A stretch of 64,000 nucleotides of DNA from Candidatus Bathyarchaeia archaeon (GTDB lineage: Archaea; Thermoproteota; Bathyarchaeia; Bathyarchaeales; Bathycorpusculaceae). The position numbers were made by a program, and so were the translations under genes. The DNA lies in the NCBI GenBank assembly GCA_050012255.1, contig JBEKHN010000013.1, positions 1 to 64,000 on the forward strand, written 5' to 3'. The notes beneath the pieces are model-generated. The model was given only the letters and a program-made list of their open reading frames with translations. It had not been told where the DNA came from and did not search any database. This document shows, piece by piece, positions 1 to 34,671 of this stretch (position 1 is its first letter; each line of letters starts with the position of its first letter).

Positions 1-2
1 AG

Positions 3-257
3 AAAATCAGGTTCGAACTCATCCTTGAACTCAAGGCTCTCGCTGAACAAGCGCAACAAAAAGCCATCGATACGCACCCTGCTAAAGTCGAAACGAAGCA
101 AAACTGGTCCCGCCTAGCAGCGTACATCAGCCAAGTCATCAACGGCATCGGCAAAACCTACGACGAAATCAAAACAGACAACGACCTGAAAACCCTCGAA
201 AACCTCATCAACGAAGTCAAACAAAAACAAGAGAAACTACAACAACCACAACAATAA
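3..257 (+). CDS. 5'-truncated helical hypothetical protein, possibly provirus-associated
   Basis: Open frame from window edge: KIRFELILELKALAEQ...NWSRLAAYISQVING...DLKTLENLINEVKQ, TAA at 255-257; absent from ORF track because there is no start codon in the window. Confidence 0.6.
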   Translation, partial: KIRFELILELKALAEQAQQKAIDTHPAKVETKQNWSRLAAYISQVINGIGKTYDEIKTDNDLKTLENLINEVKQKQEKLQQPQQ

Positions 258-286
258 AGGCCGGCGTGTTGGTCGTAACCCGTCTT
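256..286 (-). repeat. att-like duplicate of the RNase P RNA 3' end
   Basis: 28/31 match to 7902-7932 with a 20-bp exact core. Confidence 0.85.
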
Positions 287-671
287 ATATCCTTAGTAAT
301 TTCTTCATTTTGTTCTTTTTGTCCTTGGCTCTGCGTGTTTTCTTCGTTCATTGGTCTTCGTCTCCTTTTAGAATTTTTGAGACCTTTATTTCGGCCAAGA
401 TTTGGGCGTATCGCATTTCTTGTTTGGTTCTTTTAAGGGTTGTCCTCATATTTATCACATGAATTCATTTCTTGCGGTTGACGCGACGACGAAACAATAA
501 ACCTTTTGGGAGGGTGGGCGTTCCCGAAAGTGTTTATGTTTTGGAGGAGATGGTTTGCGTGGAAGTGTATGAGAAACCGTTACCTTGATGGGTTGGACTT
601 CTGGGCGGCTATGGTAATGGTGTCTCATGTTATCGTGTTGTTGTCTGGGGTCTGTGTGCGCGCTTCGAGGC

Positions 672-2000
672 TCAGGTCAGATGCCTTCTCCTGCAGACTA
701 TTGTTGCAAGTAGTGTGGCCATCATGAATAAGGATAGAATCAGCAGAAATGGAAACTCTGGGAGTATGTCTATCGATGTGACAGGTTGAGTAAAGGTGAA
801 ATATATTGTCGTACTGGTGCTGTTTGTAGTGATAATCGTGCTTGAGGATTGGTTCTCCTGAAGATCTACACGCCAAGGGTAGTTTGAGGAATTCAGCCAA
901 GCATGTGAAAATGTCATTCTGCAAAAACTACTTGTTTCGTTCTGACCACTGATTTCCGATAACCGTAGAATTAGATCCATGCCTATGGGGGAAAAGACAT
1001 CATCAGCATAAATTAGAATAACCTTTCCAATGGTTGCATTACTGATGATATCTACTTCATCGTACAAAGGATAAGAGAGACCAGAGCTTGAAACATTGAA
1101 ACTCTGGAAAGTACCCATCAAAGGATAATGGTCTGTGTTGTTTTCGTCAATGACATACGGTGTATCGCCTATGCCATCCTGACTGTTATCGGTTCCATTG
1201 TAGTCACTCCAGTAGTTTCCCTCAGCACCATTATCCCAAATTTGCTTTGATCCATCACCCTCTACCTGCCCCTGCCAACTTTGCATTGCTGAGAAATTGT
1301 TGTGAAAGAACATGTTGCCAGTAGTAGAAGTGAAACGAGCAGAAAAAGAATAGAATTGAATGTTCAATTCATTCTTGTCGAAACTGTTCTGAGAGAAGGT
1401 ATTGTTAGAGGAATCCCAGAGCAAAATGCCTTCCCTGTCCTTTGTCATGTTGTTACATGACACAACGTTTCCAGATGAAGAGACAATCGCGAGACCATAA
1501 TTGCAAAATGTGACGTTGTTGTCGGTAACGGCGTTGCCAGAGGAGAAGTAAAGCTGAGCACCCACATAAGCATCTAAATTGTTGTCAGACAAAGTGATGT
1601 TAGAAGAAAAGTGGACGTCAATGCCGGTAGGGAAGCTTCTTACGTTGGTGTTCATTATCTTCACATTGCTTACATTTGTCATGAAGACCCCAGATATCTG
1701 CGACCCGTTTCCAGCAAACCGCCATGGGCCTTGAACCGCGTATCCATTTCCATCGATGATTGTGTTGTTTCTTTCAACTATAATTCCATAATCGCTGGTG
1801 GAGATGTTGTCAGTCAAAGTGTAGGTGACGTTGTCGGTGGTGGAGATGGGTGAAGTCGGTGGGTATATTGAACCGTCTGCGTTGATGTAGATTGCACTAT
1901 CTGCTCTCGCCGATTGGATCCTAAATGAACCTCCTATTCCTGAGATGAAAATCAAAATGAAGATCATGCAAGTAGCCTTTCTCTTCAACAAGAGAAACAA
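672..2000 (-). CDS. Secreted NosD-like parallel beta-helix protein with PEF-CTERM-type anchor
   Basis: Signal peptide, SSxNxxxxN beta-helix repeats, GNYWSDY...DGIGDTPY motif, C-terminal PEF + TM helix + RRR. Confidence 0.85.
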   Translation of the reverse strand: MFLLLKRKATCMIFILIFISGIGGSFRIQSARADSAIYINADGSIYPPTSPISTTDNVTYTLTDNISTSDYGIIVERNNTIIDGNGYAVQGPWRFAGNGSQISGVFMTNVSNVKIMNTNVRSFPTGIDVHFSSNITLSDNNLDAYVGAQLYFSSGNAVTDNNVTFCNYGLAIVSSSGNVVSCNNMTKDREGILLWDSSNNTFSQNSFDKNELNIQFYSFSARFTSTTGNMFFHNNFSAMQSWQGQVEGDGSKQIWDNGAEGNYWSDYNGTDNSQDGIGDTPYVIDENNTDHYPLMGTFQSFNVSSSGLSYPLYDEVDIISNATIGKVILIYADDVFSPIGMDLILRLSEISGQNETSSFCRMTFSHAWLNSSNYPWRVDLQENQSSSTIITTNSTSTTIYFTFTQPVTSIDILPEFPFLLILSLFMMATLLATIVCRRRHLT

Positions 2001-2103
2001 CTCCTAATCAACTCTGAATGAAATCTTTAACTCTTAAGGCTGTTCATCGCGCGCGTATGAGATGCTTTCTAACTTTTCCTCTTTTTCAAAATGAGGGGAA
2101 AGC

Positions 2104-2424
2104 TTATGTCTCCGAGGACATCGTCCTTTCGTATCTCATCTGCCTCGAGCGTAGTTTGCTTTCTCTGTTTCTCTGTGCATGAGATGTTAGTTCTAGTAAT
2201 ATAGTCAAGATCGTCAGCACTAGCGAAGCCCAGAAGAGTGGACATCCGAGAAGAACAGCAAAGAAGGAATTCTTAATGGGATAGCAGAAGCAGAAAGTAT
2301 AGTCCACTGGACTCTGTGAACGCCATGTCAGATAGTTTGCAACGAACGTTATTATCCATAGAACGATCGTTGATAGTATTAGTGGAACGCGTATCTGGGC
2401 GTGTGCCTTATTGAATTCGGTCAT
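2104..2424 (-). CDS. Small two-TM membrane protein
   Basis: Two hydrophobic segments and a basic tail. Confidence 0.55.
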   Translation of the reverse strand: MTEFNKAHAQIRVPLILSTIVLWIITFVANYLTWRSQSPVDYTFCFCYPIKNSFFAVLLGCPLFWASLVLTILTILLELTSHAQRNRESKLRSRQMRYERTMSSET

Positions 2425-2517
2425 TCATCGCGCGACCGTCAAACCATTTTTACATCCTCGTCTGAAGGTGCTGACCCAACGTTAGTTTCAGGATGAGCGC
2501 GCGCTCCTTTAGTGGCT

Positions 2518-2646
2518 TTAACGTTTCTTGCCTTTGGCAGGAAGTTGCTGTCTCATCTGTTTCTTTTTCGCTTCTTTTTCCCGTTCTATCTTTTTCTGTT
2601 GTGCGATTTGAGTATTCTTTTGTTTACGTTTCATTACACTCGGCAT
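2518..2646 (-). CDS. Putative 42-aa Lys-rich small protein
   Basis: MPSVMKRKQKNTQIAQQKKIEREKEAKKKQMRQQLPAKGKKR*, translated by hand. Confidence 0.4.
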   Translation of the reverse strand: MPSVMKRKQKNTQIAQQKKIEREKEAKKKQMRQQLPAKGKKR

Positions 2647-2816
2647 AAATCTCAGCTACAAATTAACGATAAATAAGCAAGCTAAAACATATTTCTTTCG
2701 CATTAATGGAGGAAGCCAATAATATCCAAAGCTGACGCGTCTTTCTTTCATTTCATTGAAGAAGCCAACTTTGTGGTAAAAACAGAAAAAGAGTTTGCAA
2801 AGCTCTTTCTTGGGGC

Positions 2817-2909
2817 TTAAGAAATCTGTGTTTTGCTTTGCTTTTCCTTATGTTTCTTCCTTTTCTCGTCTCGCTCTTTCTTAGTTAACGGTTTGTCTTT
2901 TTTCGGCAT
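2817..2909 (-). CDS. Putative 30-aa Lys-rich small protein
   Basis: MPKKDKPLTKKERDEKRKKHKEKQSKTQIS*, with BRE/TATA-like CGAAAATTATTAAAG upstream. Confidence 0.4.
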   Translation of the reverse strand: MPKKDKPLTKKERDEKRKKHKEKQSKTQIS

Positions 2910-3022
2910 TTATGTTCCCAGAAGGTATGATATGCGTAATAGTGCTTTAATAATTTTCGAGCGCGCGCGTCGATCCACAAAACACTTTTAGACTGTAAGA
3001 TAAAGATGAGGATTAGACTATA

Positions 3023-3853
3023 ATGACACTTCATATTAACACGATAACACCAAACCATATTATTTCCGTTTCAGATAGACTTCTTTCAACATCCACTGGA
3101 TATATTGAAGACTCGACTGATAGATATAAGCATCTTATTCTGATAACCGATGATGCAAGGGTCATAGTAACCTTTTCAGGGTTTGCTGGAATTATCGGAA
3201 AAAACGGAGTGCTCGAAGAATCAACAATTGATTGGTTGACAACTGTAATCATGAATACAGGTCATGATGGTCATCACAGGTTGTGGGAAGACCATATTAA
3301 GGACATAAAAAATGATGCAGAGAAACGGATTGAAAAACTGCAATACATACACAAAATACCTCTAAGCAAATTGCAATTGGCAATATTTATTGCTGGAGAT
3401 TATAAAGGCGACCTTTTTGGTTTCATAATAGACAATAGTATAGAAAAAAATTGGACTTGGGCAAAAGTTGCTCGGACTTCATTTAGAACTGCATATAAAA
3501 ATTATAGTATGGAAAAGTTTGAAGATGGTTGTTATATAGCCTTCCTTGGGAATGAGAGACTTGCGATGAAACAAAGAGTGTTACTGCAGTTACTTAAGAG
3601 ATATGCTCGTAATGAGGATATAAAAAATATATTTCAAACATCTGTTAATATTATTAGGGCTGTTTCGGAAATGAGTGAGGGGTCTGTGGGTTGGAATTGT
3701 TCTGGTGTTAGAATAACAAGAAATAATCCTGGAATTGAAGCTTTTGATGATAGAGATACAAAAAAATATAGTATGGTTATGCCAAATTGTATTTCTTCTA
3801 CCTCCAAGTTTTCAGGTTGTGTGGGGAACATTAAAGGACGCAATTCAGATTAA
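3023..3853 (+). CDS. Ntn-hydrolase / proteasome-beta-like hypothetical protein
   Basis: After Met removal: Thr1, Asp17 (VSDR), Lys35 and a FSG motif; AT-rich gene. Confidence 0.6.
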   Translation: MTLHINTITPNHIISVSDRLLSTSTGYIEDSTDRYKHLILITDDARVIVTFSGFAGIIGKNGVLEESTIDWLTTVIMNTGHDGHHRLWEDHIKDIKNDAEKRIEKLQYIHKIPLSKLQLAIFIAGDYKGDLFGFIIDNSIEKNWTWAKVARTSFRTAYKNYSMEKFEDGCYIAFLGNERLAMKQRVLLQLLKRYARNEDIKNIFQTSVNIIRAVSEMSEGSVGWNCSGVRITRNNPGIEAFDDRDTKKYSMVMPNCISSTSKFSGCVGNIKGRNSD

Positions 3854-4010
3854 ACGATTAGCTTTTCTACCTGCTTAAAAATAGCGCGCGCGCTAGGAAA
3901 TGCAATCTGCTTTATGATCGTCAGAACACGTGTATGTTGAGTAAGGAAAGTAAATAAGGTAAAGTTTTGTATCAGTTAGAAGCCATCGATCGACTCGCGA
4001 TGGTGAAAAA

Positions 4011-5267
4011 ATGAAGTTGGCGGTTCTTGTTTGGGAATACCCTCCTATGATTGTTGGGGGATTAGGCACCTACGCTGCGGAGATTACTCGGAAGTTTGTT
4101 TTGGACGACAATGATGTGACCGTGTTTACGATGAATGATGACGCCGGTAGCTTGCCGACACGGGAGATTTGGCGCGGTATCGAGATTCACCGTCCGTTGC
4201 ACATTGACATTTCCGATTCTCTGCCTGACGTTGTTGCAGAAGACATAAGGAAGTGGGGAATGGGGAAAGGAATACAATTCTTCTCTAAAATTCTTGTCTA
4301 TAATTATTTGAGTGCGTCGAAGCTGGTTAATGAACTGATCAGGAAAGAAGATTTCAAGTATGACATAGTGGTCGCTCATGACTGGCTTTCTGCCATAGGA
4401 GGGATGACTGTGAAAAGGGAGGTTGGAATGCCATTCGCTTTTCATGTTCATTCAACCGAAAAGGGAAGAACTCTTGGGAACGGTTCGGTCACTAAAAGCA
4501 ACATTGAACTTCACGCCGCTCGAGTGGCCGACCTTATCGTGACAGTTTCTTATGCTATGAAGGATGAGTTGGTTGGACTTGGTTTTCCGAAGGAGAAAAT
4601 CCAGGTTTCCTATAACGGTGTCGACCCTGACAAGTACAATCCGAGCACGGTGACTCCTGATCAAGTCAAAAAGATCAGAGCTATGTATGACGTGAAGGAC
4701 GATGAGGAAATGATTCTTTTTATAGGTCGACTCGTCGGTGTGAAAGGTGTTGATAAACTGATTATGGCTTTGCCGCATATTTTGCAGAAGAATCCTAAGG
4801 CGAAGCTTGTTATCGTTGGTCTTGGCGACTTGCAGGAATACTTGATGAATCTGGTGAAAGCTACGAAGATGAGTGATTTCGTGAAGTTCAGGTTCGAATT
4901 CATTCCCGAGGAAGAACGTATTCTTCATTATGCTGCATGTGACGTTGCAGTTTTCCCAAGTTTCTATGAGCCCTTCGGAATAGTTGTTCTTGAAGCCATG
5001 GCGATGGAACGACCTGTTGTTGTTGGAGCTGCGGGTATAAGTGGGATGCGTGAAATCGTTGTCTGTTGCGGAGATGAGCAATGTGGTTATCACATAGATC
5101 CTAATAATCCGTCGGACATAGCATGGGGAATAAACAGCGTTTTGGAAAATGCTGACAAGAAAAAGTGGCTTGGAAAGAACGGTAGAAAGAGGGTTCTGAA
5201 CGAGTTTACTTGGGATAAGATCGCTGCAGAAACGTTGGGTTTGTACGAACAGATTCCTAAGTGCTAA
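4011..5267 (+). CDS. GT4 family glycosyltransferase (glycogen synthase-like)
   Basis: WEYPP..GGLG, HDW, GRL..KG and EPFGIVVLEAMA motifs. Confidence 0.92.
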   Translation: MKLAVLVWEYPPMIVGGLGTYAAEITRKFVLDDNDVTVFTMNDDAGSLPTREIWRGIEIHRPLHIDISDSLPDVVAEDIRKWGMGKGIQFFSKILVYNYLSASKLVNELIRKEDFKYDIVVAHDWLSAIGGMTVKREVGMPFAFHVHSTEKGRTLGNGSVTKSNIELHAARVADLIVTVSYAMKDELVGLGFPKEKIQVSYNGVDPDKYNPSTVTPDQVKKIRAMYDVKDDEEMILFIGRLVGVKGVDKLIMALPHILQKNPKAKLVIVGLGDLQEYLMNLVKATKMSDFVKFRFEFIPEEERILHYAACDVAVFPSFYEPFGIVVLEAMAMERPVVVGAAGISGMREIVVCCGDEQCGYHIDPNNPSDIAWGINSVLENADKKKWLGKNGRKRVLNEFTWDKIAAETLGLYEQIPKC

Positions 5268-5739
5268 GCTTGAGTTTTAGTCAGCCTCGGGGTTTTTCAT
5301 AAGACTTTGCCCCAACCAACTTCCATGGGCGATAGCAAAACGTTCAGCTAGTAATTCAGCTTGATATGTCTGGGATAAATTCGTTCAGGTCTTTAGCGCG
5401 CGCGCTTCACTTGAGCCTACAGGTTCTGTTCGCCTGTAGTTTGTCGTCAAATATCTCCTAGATCCTATTTCAACTTCTTGGATTGGACATCCTTTCTTCT
5501 GAAGGATGTTCCACCAGATTTTCTTCAGCTCTTCCTCATTCAAATAAAAGAGCACTCCTTCTGCCGCTGAACGCATAGTGGTAGAGAGTGACTTATATTA
5601 ATACTCGAACTTGTCGTGGAATGTTCCAAGCAGAAACGAAAGGTATTAGTCTTCGTGGCGAATCGTCTGGAACGTGCGAGTGAGCCGAAAGACTCACGAG
5701 CTGACTTTTTGTTGGATGAGCGCGAGCATGATGCGAGCT

Positions 5740-6810
5740 TCACTGTGGAGCTGGAAGTAGCGTAATGTAGCACGTGGATCTAACGAGTTCCGCGAGAATT
5801 TCGCTGTAGTGAGAGTAGAAATAGTTTGCCGTTGTTCCTCCTTCTAGATTGTGTGAAGAATAGTTGCGTATCATCAAGAGTATTCTTAAACACTTTTCTT
5901 GATCATTTTGACGAGTCAGCTCCAATGGTAGTTTCGTGTCAAGGTCACTCATTTGTGCTGCACTAGACGAGCTGACGTCAATCCCAGGAAACTTGGCTGC
6001 TATCAGACCTGCAAGTTTCCAACGTCTACTTCGAAGTTCCGTCTGAGACATTTTGCTCTTCAGAAGGTCTTCATTGAATAGACAGAAATCTTGGGTATAT
6101 GCAAGAAGGCGACCAGCTGTAAAACTATTCTCTTTATCCTTCCATATGTCCCAGTTTTGGAAGATTCTAGCAAATGTGCAATTAAAGAAGACTCTTTGAT
6201 CGTCGTTCAGTGAGTCTAGGAAAGTGGTTACGAACTGCTCAGGGTTTGGGACGACAGCAATTCCGAGCGTCGAAATTATTGTCTGGAGACGGGTCTTGAC
6301 GTAAAGAATTTCGAATTGAGTAAACAAATCTCGTCTTCTCAAATTGTACTCAGGGGTGTTTTCAGAATAGGGAGAGTCCTCAATCAGAGCCTTGAGAATG
6401 TTGGCGAAACCTTCGTCAAGTTTCATCTGTGCCGATTGTGCAACACCGAGGTTGGCGTAAATCATGCCCTTGTTAAAGGTAAAATTCTGAGTCTTTTCGA
6501 ATGCTTTCACTTGTGCCAGAAGAACATTATAGTACATTTCGTTGAGTGATGGATAAAATCTCCACATTGTAAGATACCAAAGATTGCTGGATGATCTCAC
6601 ATAGTAGTCTTTTTCGACATATGGATAAGGTGGTGTATGTCCGAGAGAACTGAATGGTGGCTTATGGTCAACATCCTTCCACTGGGTCATTCCATAGCTT
6701 AGTCTCCACTGTCCATATTGAAAGAGGAAGTTCATATCCGCCAGCAATTGTGAAGAGTTCTTGATGAAATCAGCTATTTCGTCGCTTTTTTCATGATATT
6801 TCTCGGCCAT
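5740..6810 (-). CDS. Hypothetical protein with TPR-like segment and C-terminal RxxxxH (HEPN-like) motif
   Basis: YANLGVAQ helical motif; RNYSSH near the C-terminus. Confidence 0.6.
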   Translation of the reverse strand: MAEKYHEKSDEIADFIKNSSQLLADMNFLFQYGQWRLSYGMTQWKDVDHKPPFSSLGHTPPYPYVEKDYYVRSSSNLWYLTMWRFYPSLNEMYYNVLLAQVKAFEKTQNFTFNKGMIYANLGVAQSAQMKLDEGFANILKALIEDSPYSENTPEYNLRRRDLFTQFEILYVKTRLQTIISTLGIAVVPNPEQFVTTFLDSLNDDQRVFFNCTFARIFQNWDIWKDKENSFTAGRLLAYTQDFCLFNEDLLKSKMSQTELRSRRWKLAGLIAAKFPGIDVSSSSAAQMSDLDTKLPLELTRQNDQEKCLRILLMIRNYSSHNLEGGTTANYFYSHYSEILAELVRSTCYITLLPAPQ

Positions 6811-6990
6811 CGTTTACACCCATAGAATCTAAATCACACTCGCTTGTTTTATGTAGCTATTGTCGCATTAATATTTCTTCAATTCAAGAAGTTTGAAACA
6901 CGATTGATCGTGAGAGTGCGAGTTCAATGCAAGCGCGACACTGATGACTTGAAGCGATTGATATGAAGGGTTGAAAGTAAGAAAGAAGGG

Positions 6991-7878
6991 TCATTTGCGT
7001 TTTCGGAACATCATTATGTTCTGTGGGGTTGTGCAGATGTACGTCCATCCGTTGTCTATTAGTTCGCCCGCTTCTTTTTCGTCTTTGGCTATTGCGTGGT
7101 GGTAGTTTTGGCTTTCTTCGTCGAATTCTACTACGTGGGTGTAAAGCATTGTGGAGTTTATGTTTCTGTGTCCGAGTTTTTCTTGTACGAGGGGTAGACT
7201 TTTCGTTTCTGTGAAAAGTTTTGTTGCGTAGTAGTGTCTGAAGGTGTGGAAGTGTATTTATTTGAGTCTTGGATTTTCTAGTTTTTTGGCTAGGGCTGTT
7301 TTTTGTCTGTCGAATGTCCAACGGATTCCACTTAGGTGGGTTTTGCCAAATAAGTATTCATTGGTTTTTGGTAGGGCGTTGAGTCTGCTAATGAGTTTGG
7401 CTGATATTCTTTGTTCTCTTGGTTTTCCGTGTTTTTCTGCTCGGCATTTGATAGTGCTTTTCTCTTCGTCTATGTCTGTCCATTTACATCTCCATAATTC
7501 ACCGATACGAAAGCCTGTTTCTTTGAGTGCTTGCAGTACGATGCTAACTTTTGTCGATGTTCCAGCTATCAAGGCATCAATTTCTTTTTCTGTTGGAACG
7601 AATGGCAAAGTTTCGTTTTTGTGGTATTTGGGTGGGGTCCATGAGATTCCTTTCATTTTACAGTATTCGAGATAGGCGTATGCGGCTATGCTCTTGTGTC
7701 CGTCGCTCCATTGTTTTCGATTGTGAATGAAAATAGCTACTTTTTCGGGATTCTCCAAATCTACGCCATGGTTAAGCATTGTTCGGAGGACTTTGAAACG
7801 TGTTCTGATGGTTTCTTCGGATAATGCAGTTTTCTGGCAATGGATAAGAAACTGGGTTAACATCCCATTCCTATCCAT
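6991..7878 (-). pseudogene. Tyrosine recombinase/integrase with internal TAA stop
   Basis: TGFRIGE, then in-frame TAA at 7258-7260 followed by IHFHTFRH..LGHRNINSTMLYTH..MFRKRK*; likely start is the ATG at 7878. Confidence 0.9.
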
Positions 7879-7903
7879 GCTAGACGGGGCGGGTTGTAGT
7901 GAA

Positions 7904-8222
7904 AAGCTGGCGTGTTGGTCGTAACCCGCCTTTTGTTCTAAGTGGCATTCGGCTAATCGGGCTACCCGCGCTTCCGGTAGACTCTTCATCAGCGTCTGCT
8001 TGCCCTTTCCACTTGCAGGACAGCCGTTTCACCGCTTCACACCCAGCATCCTCAACAACTTAACATGCATCACCGTCACCTGCTGAGCGGACGTTTCGTT
8101 TCTGCTCTGGAGCCAAGGTTCTCACCTTGCGTCCTTGCGGACGCTGCAACTCTACACGTGGGCGGAGTTTCCTCAAGCCTCTCACGTCGAGGCTCGAAAG
8201 CCACACACCAACTCGCCAGCCC
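7904..8222 (-). ncRNA. rnpB: Archaeal RNase P RNA
   Basis: Minus strand carries GAGGAAACTCCGCCC, AGAGCAGAAACG, TGAAACGGC, AGAACAAAAGGCGGGTTA; P1 formed by GCTGGCGAGTTGGT / ACCAACACGCCAGC; ends approximate. Confidence 0.92.
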
Positions 8223-8423: not shown

Positions 8424-9785
8424 GTGCGACTAATCATGGAACGATGGAACCGAATAACGTTGTGTCTTCTTCTCATCAGCATGTTCACTCTAGCCTTGTG
8501 CATTCGGTCAGGCTTCGCCGCGTCAGGGTGGAGCCAAACCTACGGAGGATCAGGAGACGACGAGACCTATTCACTTGTTAAGACCAGCGACGGAGGCTAC
8601 GCGTTAGCGGGATACACAAACTCCAGCGGCGCCGGCAGCTACGACTTCTGGCTCGTCAAAACAGACTCTTCTGGAACGAAACAGTGGAACCAAACCTACG
8701 GGGGATCAAACGACGAAGGAGCCTTTTCGGTCATCCAGACCAACGACACGGGATACGCAGTAGCCGGGATCACAACTTCCTACGGTGCAGGCGAAACCGA
8801 CGCCTGGCTGGTCAAAACAGACTCTTCTGGAACCATGCAGTGGAGCCAAACCTACGGAGGATCAGGAGACGACGAGACCTATTCACTTGTTAAGACCAGC
8901 GACGGAGGCTACGCGTTAGCGGGATACACAAACTCCAGCGGCGCCGGCGGCGACGACTTCTGGCTGGTCAAGACCAACTCTTCGGGAAGCATGGTGTGGA
9001 ACCAGACGTATGGTGGGACAGGAGACGAACAGGCTTCCTCTGTTATCCAGACTAGCGACGGAGGCTACGCGTTAGCGGGGTACACGACCTCTTTCGGCGC
9101 CGGCGACTACGATTTCTGGTTGGTTAGAACCGACTCCTCGGGAAACATGCTGTGGAACCGAACCTACGGAAGCGCAGGGGACGATGAAGCAGAATGCGTG
9201 ATTCAGACCGGCGACGGCTACGCCTTAGCTGGGCTCACAAACTCTACTGGCGCAGGCGGCCTCGACTTCTGGTTGGTCAAAACCGACTCCAACGGAACGC
9301 CACAGTGGAACCGAACCTATGGAGGAGCAGGCGACGAAGCGGCAAACGCGTTATTACAAACAAGCGACACAGGCTACGCATTAGCAGGCTGGACGACCTC
9401 TTACGGCGCGGGCGGCTACGATTTCTGGCTTGTCAAAACCGACTCTTCTGGAACGATGCAGTGGAGCAAAACGTACGGGGGAGGAGGGGACGACGCGGCG
9501 TTCTCACTTGTTCTGACCAGCGATGGAGGCTACGCGTTAGCCGGTTTCACGGGTTCCTACGGCGCAGGAGACTATGATGGCTTCCTAGTTAAAACCGACT
9601 CCTCTGGAAACAGCGTCATGCCGCAGTCATCATCCTCCATCCCATATTTAGCCATCGTAATAGTCGCGATCATAGCGATCGTAGTGATAGTAGCAGTTGT
9701 CATAGTCCGCAGAAGGCGTCCGAAACCCGGCACGCCCACCGTCCAACAGGTATCGCCTGCAGATTCTGAAGTGAAACCGACTTGA
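8424..9785 (+). CDS. Membrane-anchored beta-propeller repeat surface protein
   Basis: Signal peptide, seven ~52-aa WxxTYGGxxDD..TSDGGYALAG..DFWLVKTDSSG repeats, C-terminal TM + RRRR. Confidence 0.88.
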   Translation: MRLIMERWNRITLCLLLISMFTLALCIRSGFAASGWSQTYGGSGDDETYSLVKTSDGGYALAGYTNSSGAGSYDFWLVKTDSSGTKQWNQTYGGSNDEGAFSVIQTNDTGYAVAGITTSYGAGETDAWLVKTDSSGTMQWSQTYGGSGDDETYSLVKTSDGGYALAGYTNSSGAGGDDFWLVKTNSSGSMVWNQTYGGTGDEQASSVIQTSDGGYALAGYTTSFGAGDYDFWLVRTDSSGNMLWNRTYGSAGDDEAECVIQTGDGYALAGLTNSTGAGGLDFWLVKTDSNGTPQWNRTYGGAGDEAANALLQTSDTGYALAGWTTSYGAGGYDFWLVKTDSSGTMQWSKTYGGGGDDAAFSLVLTSDGGYALAGFTGSYGAGDYDGFLVKTDSSGNSVMPQSSSSIPYLAIVIVAIIAIVVIVAVVIVRRRRPKPGTPTVQQVSPADSEVKPT

Positions 9786-16856: not shown

Positions 16857-17051
16857 GCGCGCTGCCTTCTCCCTTTATTGTGCGTTCGCACTTGAACTGC
16901 CCACTCGGCTCAGCATCCGACCTGAACAGCCTCACCGTTTTCAAGGATGCTCGTTAACTGTATATGTAAAGTGTATATGCAAAGTGTATATGCAAATTGT
17001 ATATGCTTTTAAATTCGTGTTTTTTGCGAATTTAGGGACAAGCCAGCGCGC
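16857..17051. repeat. GCGCGC-bounded element A, copy 1, with four 13-bp tandem units
   Basis: (AAAGTGTATATGC)x~4 at ~16958-17006; right end GAATTTAGGGACAAGCCAGCGCGC resembles the C/D termini. Confidence 0.8.
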
Positions 17052-17190
17052 TAACTGTTCTTCTTGTGAAAGCGGAAATTATAAATCAGTAATGAAATAA
17101 TAGAGTGTAATCACTTCAGTATTTGACTCATCTCTGTATAAGGGGGGTAGGATTACGAGCACTCACGCAGAAGACTTAAAACTTCGCCTA

Positions 17191-22948: not shown

Positions 22949-22994
22949 CAACGATAGTTTGGAGAGCTGTTCATAAAAGGTTGATGCAGGCGAA

Positions 22995-23097
22995 GCCCGC
23001 TGGCTGGTCGTTAAATTCGCAAAAAGCGCATAATTAAAAGCATATACATTTTGCATATACACTTTGCATATACACTTGACGAGCATTGTTGAAAACG
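22995..23097. repeat. Element A, copy 2 (inverted relative to copy 1), three 13-bp units
   Basis: GCCCGCTGGCTGGTCGTTAAATTCGC...(TTGCATATACACT)n matches the reverse complement of ~16936-17051. Confidence 0.8.
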
Positions 23098-34580: not shown

Positions 34581-34671
34581 GCGCGCGCAGAGGAGCTTAC
34601 ACGTTTTGCAAATACGTTTTGCATATACACTTTGCATATACAGTTGGCTAGGATTGTTGAAAAGCGCGCGC
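34581..34671. repeat. Element A, short copy 3, bounded by GCGCGCGC on both sides
   Basis: TTTGCATATACAC units followed by GATTGTTGAAAA as in copy 2. Confidence 0.7.

Follow-up and report, generated by a model that had tools for sequence, protein, structure and literature searches.

We analysed a 64,000-nt stretch of DNA (hereafter the window) from a Candidatus Bathyarchaeia archaeon, located at the start of contig C13 in a metagenome-assembled genome (MAG) of 2.35 Mb with 38 contigs and 5% contamination. Positions 263-7928 very probably represent an integrative element that entered the chromosome through site-specific recombination by a tyrosine integrase, with the 3′ end of rnpB, the RNase P RNA gene, serving as its attachment (att) site. 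The following features define the arrangement:

7910-8216, minus strand: rnpB, a complete archaeal RNase P RNA gene (Rfam RF00373, 191 bits against a gathering score of 84, E 3e-55, model positions 1-288 of 288)
7909-7928: proximal att core (attL-like), made of the final 19 nt of rnpB and one further nt, with the same sequence as 263-282
263-282: distal att core (attR-like), which repeats part of the rnpB 3′ end and is joined on the element side by the motif ATTACTAAGG
6991-7878, minus strand: pseudogene of a tyrosine integrase, 295 codons long and interrupted by an in-frame TAA at 7258-7260 (codon 207)
7888-7895: arm motif GGCGGGTT (AACCCGCC in the sense of rnpB), an inverted repeat of rnpB-internal 7923-7930 across a 27-nt spacer
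1-262, plus strand: left flank, the 3′ end of a multi-copy gene; not plain chromosome, as the contig start joins contig C27 or C36 in the assembly graph

The rnpB 3′ end, its repeat and the adjoining integrase

A sequence-only reading of this DNA had placed rnpB at a direct repeat, and cmsearch identified the complete archaeal RNA gene there, present as a single copy across the 2.35 Mb genome. Both of the earlier repeat counts were reproduced: 263-282 and 7909-7928 form an exact 20-mer in direct orientation, and 256-286 agrees with 7902-7932 at 28 of 31 positions when counted directly on the sequences. Weaker similarity surrounds the cores, with 35 of 42 positions identical between 256-297 and 7902-7943 (repeat family D7). 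According to the RF00373 alignment, the repeated stretch comprises the paired 3′ strand of the terminal helix together with GGCGGGUU, which we take to represent the P4 3′ strand, a helix that is unannotated in the covariance model. The earlier P4/P1 label therefore holds by alignment for the terminal helix and is reasonable for P4.

When up to three mismatches were allowed, the 20-mer matched only these two sites in the 64-kb window, and none of 100 shuffled sequences gave a match. A 14-nt core seed had four exact matches in the genome, all in a single orientation (C13:263, C13:7909, C27:9578 and C27:12974), and identity extends over 17 nt in all four copies. The core is therefore not a dispersed repeat, an objection that the sequence-only reading had raised against itself.

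The integrase begins with an ATG at 7878 on the rnpB strand. The adjacency and shared strand described earlier were correct, and the distance of ~25 nt was not: the start lies 31 nt past the 3′ end of the RF00373 model. Read through the stop, the frame scored 80.1 bits against PF00589 (Phage_integrase; cut-off 27.1), compared with 67.9 bits for an uninterrupted homologue in the congener G007. The motifs GFRIGE, HTFRH, GHRN and MLYTH supply R, HxxR, H and Y, residues to which we presumptively assign the catalytic roles R, HxxR, H/W and Y, and R124, R215, H216 and H238 are invariant in the integrase alignment (A1). The C terminus bears a conserved extension of ~45 aa, with FRKRK as its last residues. 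The in-frame TAA precedes the HxxR, H and Y active-site residues, after which the frame resumes to its stop at 6991-6993; the G007 homologue, which is 76% identical, carries Gln at the position of the TAA. The uninterrupted frame expected of a working enzyme is thus broken at codon 207. Logan contig record 6 of sequencing run X1 covers 4539-7935 with no differences, possibly from the same data as the window. Judged from its sequence, the window gene is a recent nonsense pseudogene.

rnpB-linked integrases in relatives

We compared the window with ten other genomes of the genus, in five of which rnpB was assembled (G001, G004, G007, G008 and G009); the gene was absent from the other five MAGs. 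All five genomes with rnpB carry an integrase directly 3′ of it. The window type (clade 1) occurs in G004, G007 and G008, where the G008 copy is frameshifted, and a second type, ~32% identical to the first (clade 2), occurs in G001 and G009, where the G009 copy is frameshifted. Against G001 and G009, the window aligned at 91-93% identity through the upstream genes and rnpB, and the alignment ended at window positions 7906/7905, at the core. Against G004, G007 and G008, it continued through the integrase and ended at the stop codon (window 6988-6993). Past these breakpoints, the content is different in each congener. The colinearity that the sequence-only reading had listed as counter-evidence was therefore not found, as synteny is lost either at the core or at the stop codon of the integrase.

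Extra core copies were found downstream of rnpB in G001 (exact at 6.1 and 15.3 kb, and with two mismatches at ~37 kb), G004 (exact at 10.1 and ~20 kb), G009 (10.4 kb, one mismatch) and G007 (~35 kb, two mismatches). In G001 and G004, a second integrase directly follows the first extra copy. These series of cores and integrases are tandem arrays of the kind made by reuse of a restored attachment site. The island of G004 also encodes a PAPS-reductase-domain protein matching the BrxP and SspD defence models.

Homologues of the integrase, which the sequence-only reading had proposed to check for this, also abut rnpB beyond the genus. Among 30 rnpB loci of the order, examined over a downstream flank of ≤1.5 kb, seven carry a family integrase 3′ of rnpB, six of them from the genus and one (G030) from another family; the other 23 have none in the fetched flank, two of these being nearly without downstream sequence. 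In G030, a 4.9 kb island lies between rnpB and a 25-nt exact copy, and the distal copy fits the rnpB variant of G030 itself (GTTACGTCCAGCACAC, not GTTACGACCAACACGC). At one locus of G021 (L006), rnpB is followed by CAGCCCCTAGCGAAACCCGCC, the clade-1 arm motif, with no integrase within 1.5 kb, which may be the scar of a lost element.

We then scanned with Rfam the neighbours of the best 80 of 204 integrase relatives in a set of species genomes, in which the closest loci were all from Bathyarchaeia/Bathyarchaeota MAGs. The RNA genes beside these 80 loci were distributed as follows:

rnpB 23-42 nt upstream, same strand: 13 loci, which may partly be the same genomes as G004, G007 and G008
rnpB convergent: 1 locus
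tRNA convergent, downstream of the integrase: 31 loci
tRNA on the same strand, downstream: 8 loci
tRNA in other positions: 2 loci
23S rRNA 5′ end: 2 loci
5S rRNA: 1 locus
no RNA gene within 300 nt: 22 loci, several of them truncated by contig ends

The rRNA-associated members lie 60 nt before 5S rRNA (L050) and ~225 nt before the 5′ end of 23S rRNA (L075 and L076), and other structured-RNA genes may also be targets.

Among the best 80 loci from JGI metagenomes, the 100 nt preceding the integrase contained a core (≤4 mismatches in 25) in 45, with no match on the opposite strand, and six further loci had <60 nt of upstream sequence. A second core copy lay 3.3-10.4 kb downstream in 15 of the 45 core-bearing loci. 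Rfam scans of 15 metagenome loci revealed full-length rnpB in 13, one copy cut by a contig end, and none in L239; there, only a partial rnpB copy of 36 nt stands before the integrase, and it is either an attP, the att site of the element itself, or a tandem junction. No contig with a terminal overlap of 20-200 nt, as expected of a circle, was present among the 80, and a search for a free viral form in IMG/VR gave 44 loci with no close relatives, the best being 32% identical over part of the protein. In many metagenome contigs (L165-L244), the first base lies within rnpB, 50-270 nt ahead of the integrase. Assemblies seem to break at this hot spot, which surveys would then overlook.

To relate target to descent, we built a quick IQ-TREE tree of 66 integrases (80 loci minus 18 with internal stops or short sequences, plus four added rows, with X at the stop in the window row). 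All rnpB-linked rows fell into two clades, with Shimodaira-Hasegawa-like approximate likelihood ratio test (SH-aLRT) values of 99 and 100, and the only other members of these clades were second units of tandem arrays. Rows linked to tRNA clustered away from them. The rnpB label requires three changes on the tree, against a mean of 12.1 after shuffling, and with two supported clades this indicates that target choice follows integrase descent, as expected of site-specific integrases. The tree gives no resolution of a sister relation between the two rnpB clades. The earlier claim that this integrase targets rnpB thus applies to its clade and its past; it does not extend to present activity, the window gene being a nonsense pseudogene.

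The junctions share a common pattern. On the rnpB side, the RNA gene lies 5′ of the core and the element 3′ of it. The arm motif at 7888-7895 and its inverted counterpart at 7923-7930 form a candidate integrase-binding dyad, and AACCC[G/A]CC is found 12-14 nt past the rnpB end in 13 of the 14 clade-1 junctions examined, being degenerate in L064. The clade-2 junctions (L112, L032, L036 and L118rc) are without this motif. The clade-2 arm (L032:3167-3200, L036, L112 and L118) carries in place of the inverted motif a direct, imperfect repeat of an rnpB segment ~25 nt upstream of the core, as exemplified by CCGAATGCCACAAA and CCGAATACCACAAA. On the distal side, most junctions examined have a slightly modified core (GACGGGTTAC...) preceded at 5-6 nt by ATTACTAAGG or by a form of it with one base changed, a pattern seen in about 11 of 16 metagenome junctions, in the window, and in one copy each of G001 and G030. 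Past the distal core, the sequence (CGGCCTTT...) is similar to CAGCCC/CGGCCC, the native continuation of rnpB in genomes without the integrase. Such junctions would be expected if the crossover took place within the 20-nt identity and attP mimics the rnpB 3′ end.

A parallel to the GGCGGGTT/AACCCGCC dyad was observed at the tRNA-convergent loci (L051-L114). In 16 of 31, an inverted copy of the 5′ strand of the T-stem (...GGGT) was found at ≥8 of 9 positions in the 45 nt after the tRNA; the mean best match was 7.2 against 6.3 for shuffled sequences, with loci that are not independent of one another.

Composition of the island and its probable array

The interior of the island (287-7878) has a GC content of 41.7%, compared with 49.1% for 8217-64000. 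In addition to a small membrane protein, it contains the following:

5740-6810, minus strand: open reading frame (ORF) of 356 aa without a family match, with a C-terminal IRNYSSH, a possible HEPN Rx4H motif
4011-5267, plus strand: GT4 glycosyltransferase (PF00534, 134.8 bits), with paralogues of 76-77% on contigs C1 and C3
3023-3853, plus strand: ORF of 276 aa without a family, between inverted GCGCGCGC-containing repeats at 2953-2969 and 3885-3901
2503-2960: conserved block of 458 nt, 95-98% identical in five congeners and each time within an rnpB-linked island
672-2000, minus strand: NosD-like secreted beta-helix protein of 442 aa (PF05048, 63.5 bits)

Three of the five cargo ORFs scanned had no match in Pfam, PHROGs, PADLOC or NCBIfam. 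IRNYSSH may be an HEPN Rx4H motif; HEPN_LA2681 clusters occur among the Atlas neighbours of this ORF at 0.82-0.85, below 0.9, which provides a lead only.

The second rnpB-linked island of G001 contains a stretch 98.7% identical to window positions 3880-5701, the segment with the glycosyltransferase gene and a 46-nt element. That G001 island carries a clade-2 integrase, and the flanking chromosome is only 90.9-92.7% identical. The motif GCGCGCGC occurs at 2497-2504, 2961-2968, 3884-3893 and 5396-5405, and coincides with module borders here and with junctions in relatives. Shuffling predicts 0.71 matches to it in the window, where 12 were found, six of them (at these four sites) inside the 7.6 kb island. 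It may be a recombination- or restriction-related breakpoint motif. The near-identity of the glycosyltransferase segment between more divergent flanks, together with the GCGCGCGC module borders, indicates that the island is, on sequence comparison, a patchwork with recent exchange of parts, built of modules common to the islands of congeners. The earlier description of the 7.7 kb between the repeats as cargo is thus right in placing this DNA between the att cores and wrong in treating it as one clean cargo; it is a 7.6 kb mosaic.

This mosaicism raises the alternative that the 7.6 kb are the fused remains of at least two elements with later insertions, so that 263 and 7909 would not be the ends of a single integration. 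The GCGCGCGC-bounded modules and the G001 match to an island with a different integrase both fit this view. A 1.6 kb stretch containing the NosD-like gene also splits otherwise adjacent pieces of the distal arm: the stretch is absent from G001 and G004 between the conserved pieces, and the counterparts of window positions 2054-2121 and 339-444 are only ~125 nt apart in L032 and L033. Likewise, the 458-nt block lies in the first, second or third array unit, depending on the congener. However, islands of like size (3.3-10.4 kb) with the same two ends, the AACCCGCC arm and the ATTACTAAGG arm, were found in 15 metagenome loci. We consider a fused origin rather unlikely, and it would modify the proposed origin of the element, not replace it, as integration at rnpB is still needed.

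The 458-nt block has sharp borders, is single-copy and exceeds rnpB in conservation; a search of 41 genomes detected it in this genus alone. As read from the alignment, two tiny, strongly basic ORFs of ~30 and 36 aa are encoded on its minus strand. In four runs, its Logan contig depth is as high as for rnpB. RNAalifold returned no compensatory pairs for the block, whose sequences are too alike. The 46-nt element, which includes a short hairpin (5656-5701), occurs once in the genome and recurs one to four times per locus in the islands of all five congeners at 87-96% identity.

The island probably continues a larger array to its left. The first 127 nt of the window are identical to the last 127 nt of both C27 and C36, and the left neighbour is ambiguous because these shared nucleotides are the 3′ end of a multi-copy gene. 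Three observations favour C27: the two other core copies lie on it and are correctly oriented; in G007, the DNA found 8.5-12 kb downstream of rnpB is colinear with C27:15542-19213; and the orthologue of the core copy at C27:9578 is located in G007 on the rnpB contig, ~35 kb downstream of that gene. If C27 adjoins the window, the order would be rnpB, 7.6 kb, core, ~6.9 kb, core, 3.4 kb, core. The island is probably the most recent unit of a tandem array that extends into C27. No integrase remnant was found on C27 or C36, and the older array units are therefore deduced from core copies only. The ~6.9 kb unit encodes AbiEi/AbiEii, PIN and a 786-aa secreted protein.

Several neighbouring sequences were also recorded. 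In the segment between two core copies, C27:13415-16411 (L002) encodes the AbiEi/AbiEii type IV toxin-antitoxin pair and a putative PIN-like/antitoxin pair as read from the sequence, together typical island cargo. A dispersed repeat of ~185 nt occurs at C27:6043-6226 and in the window at 16857-17052, 22994-23096 and 34608-34663, with many copies at 75-95% identity on at least 11 other contigs. Directly 5′ of rnpB, 8424-9785 encodes a secreted 453-aa protein with about seven repeats of 52 aa (156 nt) of the form WxQTYGGxGDD...GGYALAGYT; the gene is present in G007 and absent at this place in G001.

Proposed integration at rnpB and its meaning

The anatomy, the pattern among relatives and the integrase phylogeny are observations, from which we deduce the recombination itself, where its crossover fell, what attP looked like and that activity was lost. 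The junctions are consistent with the following course of events. The element's attP would have carried its own copy of the rnpB 3′ end, so that recombination, with a crossover within the 20-nt identity, would leave rnpB complete. The rnpB side would then consist of the host RNA gene 5′ of the core, followed 3′ by the integrase arm of the element with AACCCGCC. The distal copy would be bordered on its 5′ side by the element (ATTACTAAGG...GACGGG) and on its 3′ side by the former downstream neighbour of rnpB. Repeated use of the restored site would give rise to tandem arrays, here probably onward into C27 with its two more cores.

Several observations weigh against this reading or limit its reach. 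Neither an excised circle nor an attP junction nor an empty chromosomal site (attB) was seen in the Logan contigs of runs X1, X2, X4 and X5. The only joint of the 263/7909 type (286 to 7906, in X1) has a side of 21 nt that is the repeat itself, and it was not counted. Other joints (441 to 2054, 5702 to 7906 and 2121 to 7904) have sides of ≤32 nt and are probably derived from related organisms. The X1 contig depths, available as one figure per contig, are similar for the island (12-17) and the flank (9-12). The comparison with relatives proposed by the sequence-only reading yielded no empty site within the genus, and integrase-free rnpB flanks were found in other genera only. A syntenic empty site could not be reconstructed from these, as the ORFs downstream of rnpB there match many contigs; two of these ORFs match C10:830-2909, but C10 is without an att remnant. 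Scans of the cargo with Pfam, PHROGs, PADLOC and NCBIfam revealed no gene for replication, capsid or transfer. The metagenome loci include near-duplicates (L175/L177 and L240/L241), and L170, which has the window's own 7,646-nt spacing, is not independent of it. The ambiguous left neighbour adds to these points.

Decay further qualifies the picture. The nonsense codon ahead of the catalytic HxxR, H and Y residues has probably locked the island in place, leaving it immobile now. Broken integrases were also found in four of the 13 rnpB-linked genome loci. The G007 gene (L034:3241-4131) has an open frame with His for the catalytic Tyr (MVHTH versus MVYTH), and its product may be inactive despite that frame. 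Much of the observed pattern is accordingly decay, not activity, given the broken integrases here and at those four loci and the Tyr-to-His change in G007.

We also considered whether the recombinase is a resident chromosomal gene, a divergent relative of the XerA dimer-resolution recombinase kept vertically beside rnpB, with an incidental repeat. The window gene is the genome's best match to archaeal XerA (NF040815), no gene of the genome reaches the cut-off of that model, and a recombinase occupies the position beside rnpB in all six genomes of the genus. However, the scores of 95.8 bits for the window and 87.9 bits for G004 are far under the 220-bit cut-off. Two clades only ~32% identical share the position in congeners, second integrases follow second att copies, and the gene is absent from the fetched flanks (≤1.5 kb) of 23 of the 30 rnpB loci of the order, two of them with almost no downstream sequence. 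Moreover, several copies are pseudogenes, the nearest relatives flank tRNA genes, and the DNA downstream is variable and low in GC. A resident gene of this kind is highly improbable.

An assembly or binning artefact that mis-joined metagenome strains is hardly credible at all: the genome is a contaminated MAG, the contig begins at a fork in the graph, 262 nt away from the distal repeat, and many metagenome contigs break within rnpB, but overlapping X1 Logan contigs tile 138-7935 (records 2, 3, 5 and 6 with no differences and depths of 12-17, possibly the same data), the separate metagenome contig L170 has equal spacing, and the same architecture occurs in genomes assembled as a single contig or as long contigs (G001; L192, whose contig spans 1.4 Mb). 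One X1 record of 383 nt (2579-2960, depth 425) showed nine differences and is probably derived from relatives. Integration at rnpB thus remains our preferred account of the island.

By a textbook rule, mobile DNA is sought at the 3′ ends of tRNA and tmRNA genes, into which it integrates site-specifically, and Williams reportedly defined sublocation classes of such sites in 2002. The window island resembles the tRNA/tmRNA islands of the Islander/TIGER class in having a tyrosine integrase at the end of an RNA gene, a direct repeat of the 3′ end at its far side, a gene restored by the element's copy, sporadic content, tandem arrays and a target that tracks integrase phylogeny. It differs in its target, the RNase P RNA gene (RF00373). 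Integration at the 3′ end of a structured-RNA gene is itself an already known mechanism. On integration, a pNOB8-type integrase gene stays whole, whereas an SSV1-type gene, with attP inside it, is split. As in the pNOB8 type, the att core here lies outside the ORF, 31 nt upstream of the integrase start, and the gene is unsplit; unlike that type, the window integrase is only distantly similar to any named family, its best NCBIfam match being XerA at a sub-cut-off 88-96 bits.

Two known classes were ruled out for the integrase: an SSV1-type split gene, as the core is upstream of the start codon and the whole ORF is on one side, and archaeal XerA (NF040815), given 88-96 bits against a 220-bit cut-off.

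The tRNA-linked integrases of the same Bathyarchaeia family (L051-L114) are similar in sequence (33-43% identity), in the C-terminal FRKRK tail, and in an arm beside the core that bears an inverted copy of an RNA-gene stem sequence. They are mostly convergent with their target, with a tRNA 3′ end 21-171 nt after the integrase stop in 31 of the 80 loci, unlike the rnpB clades, which are mostly co-directional and have the integrase start adjoining the RNA 3′ end.

In the text accessible to us, the TIGER/Islander resource note names only tRNA/tmRNA, coding and intergenic sites, and it describes Islander-type tools as searching tRNA/tmRNA genes only (PMC12424338). We found no description of rnpB as an integration target in the accessible full text of the literature covered, which included this resource note, a Bathyarchaeia virus paper, a Bathyarchaeia MAG paper and a 2026 archaeal provirus survey, supplementary tables and older subscription papers aside. 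The TIGER/Islander database itself could list such islands.

Taken more broadly, we see an even prospect that rnpB is a regular attachment site, not described before, for two clades of a Bathyarchaeia-wide integrase family whose relatives use tRNA genes and sit beside 5S/23S rRNA. The family may recognise a dyad with a conserved RNA stem as one half (GGCGGGTT, the 3′ strand of P4, similar to GCGGGTT of the tRNA T-stem), which would allow jumps between structured-RNA genes, and integration time after time would make the rnpB flank an accretion zone of 20-35 kb in which modules, often GCGCGCGC-bounded, are shuffled.

On our preferred account, an essential RNA gene, rnpB, acts as a docking site for mobile DNA, much like tRNA genes, and an element can target a strand of a catalytic-core helix of the ribozyme, provided that the strand is restored. 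If this holds across Bathyarchaeia, a large, uncultured and globally abundant class, island finders miss a whole class of elements, and the rnpB flank would offer a simple handle to harvest Bathyarchaeia mobile elements from metagenomes. Intact integrases of this family, with an attB of 20-25 nt in a near-universal archaeal gene, would also be candidate DNA-insertion tools for archaea without a genetic system.

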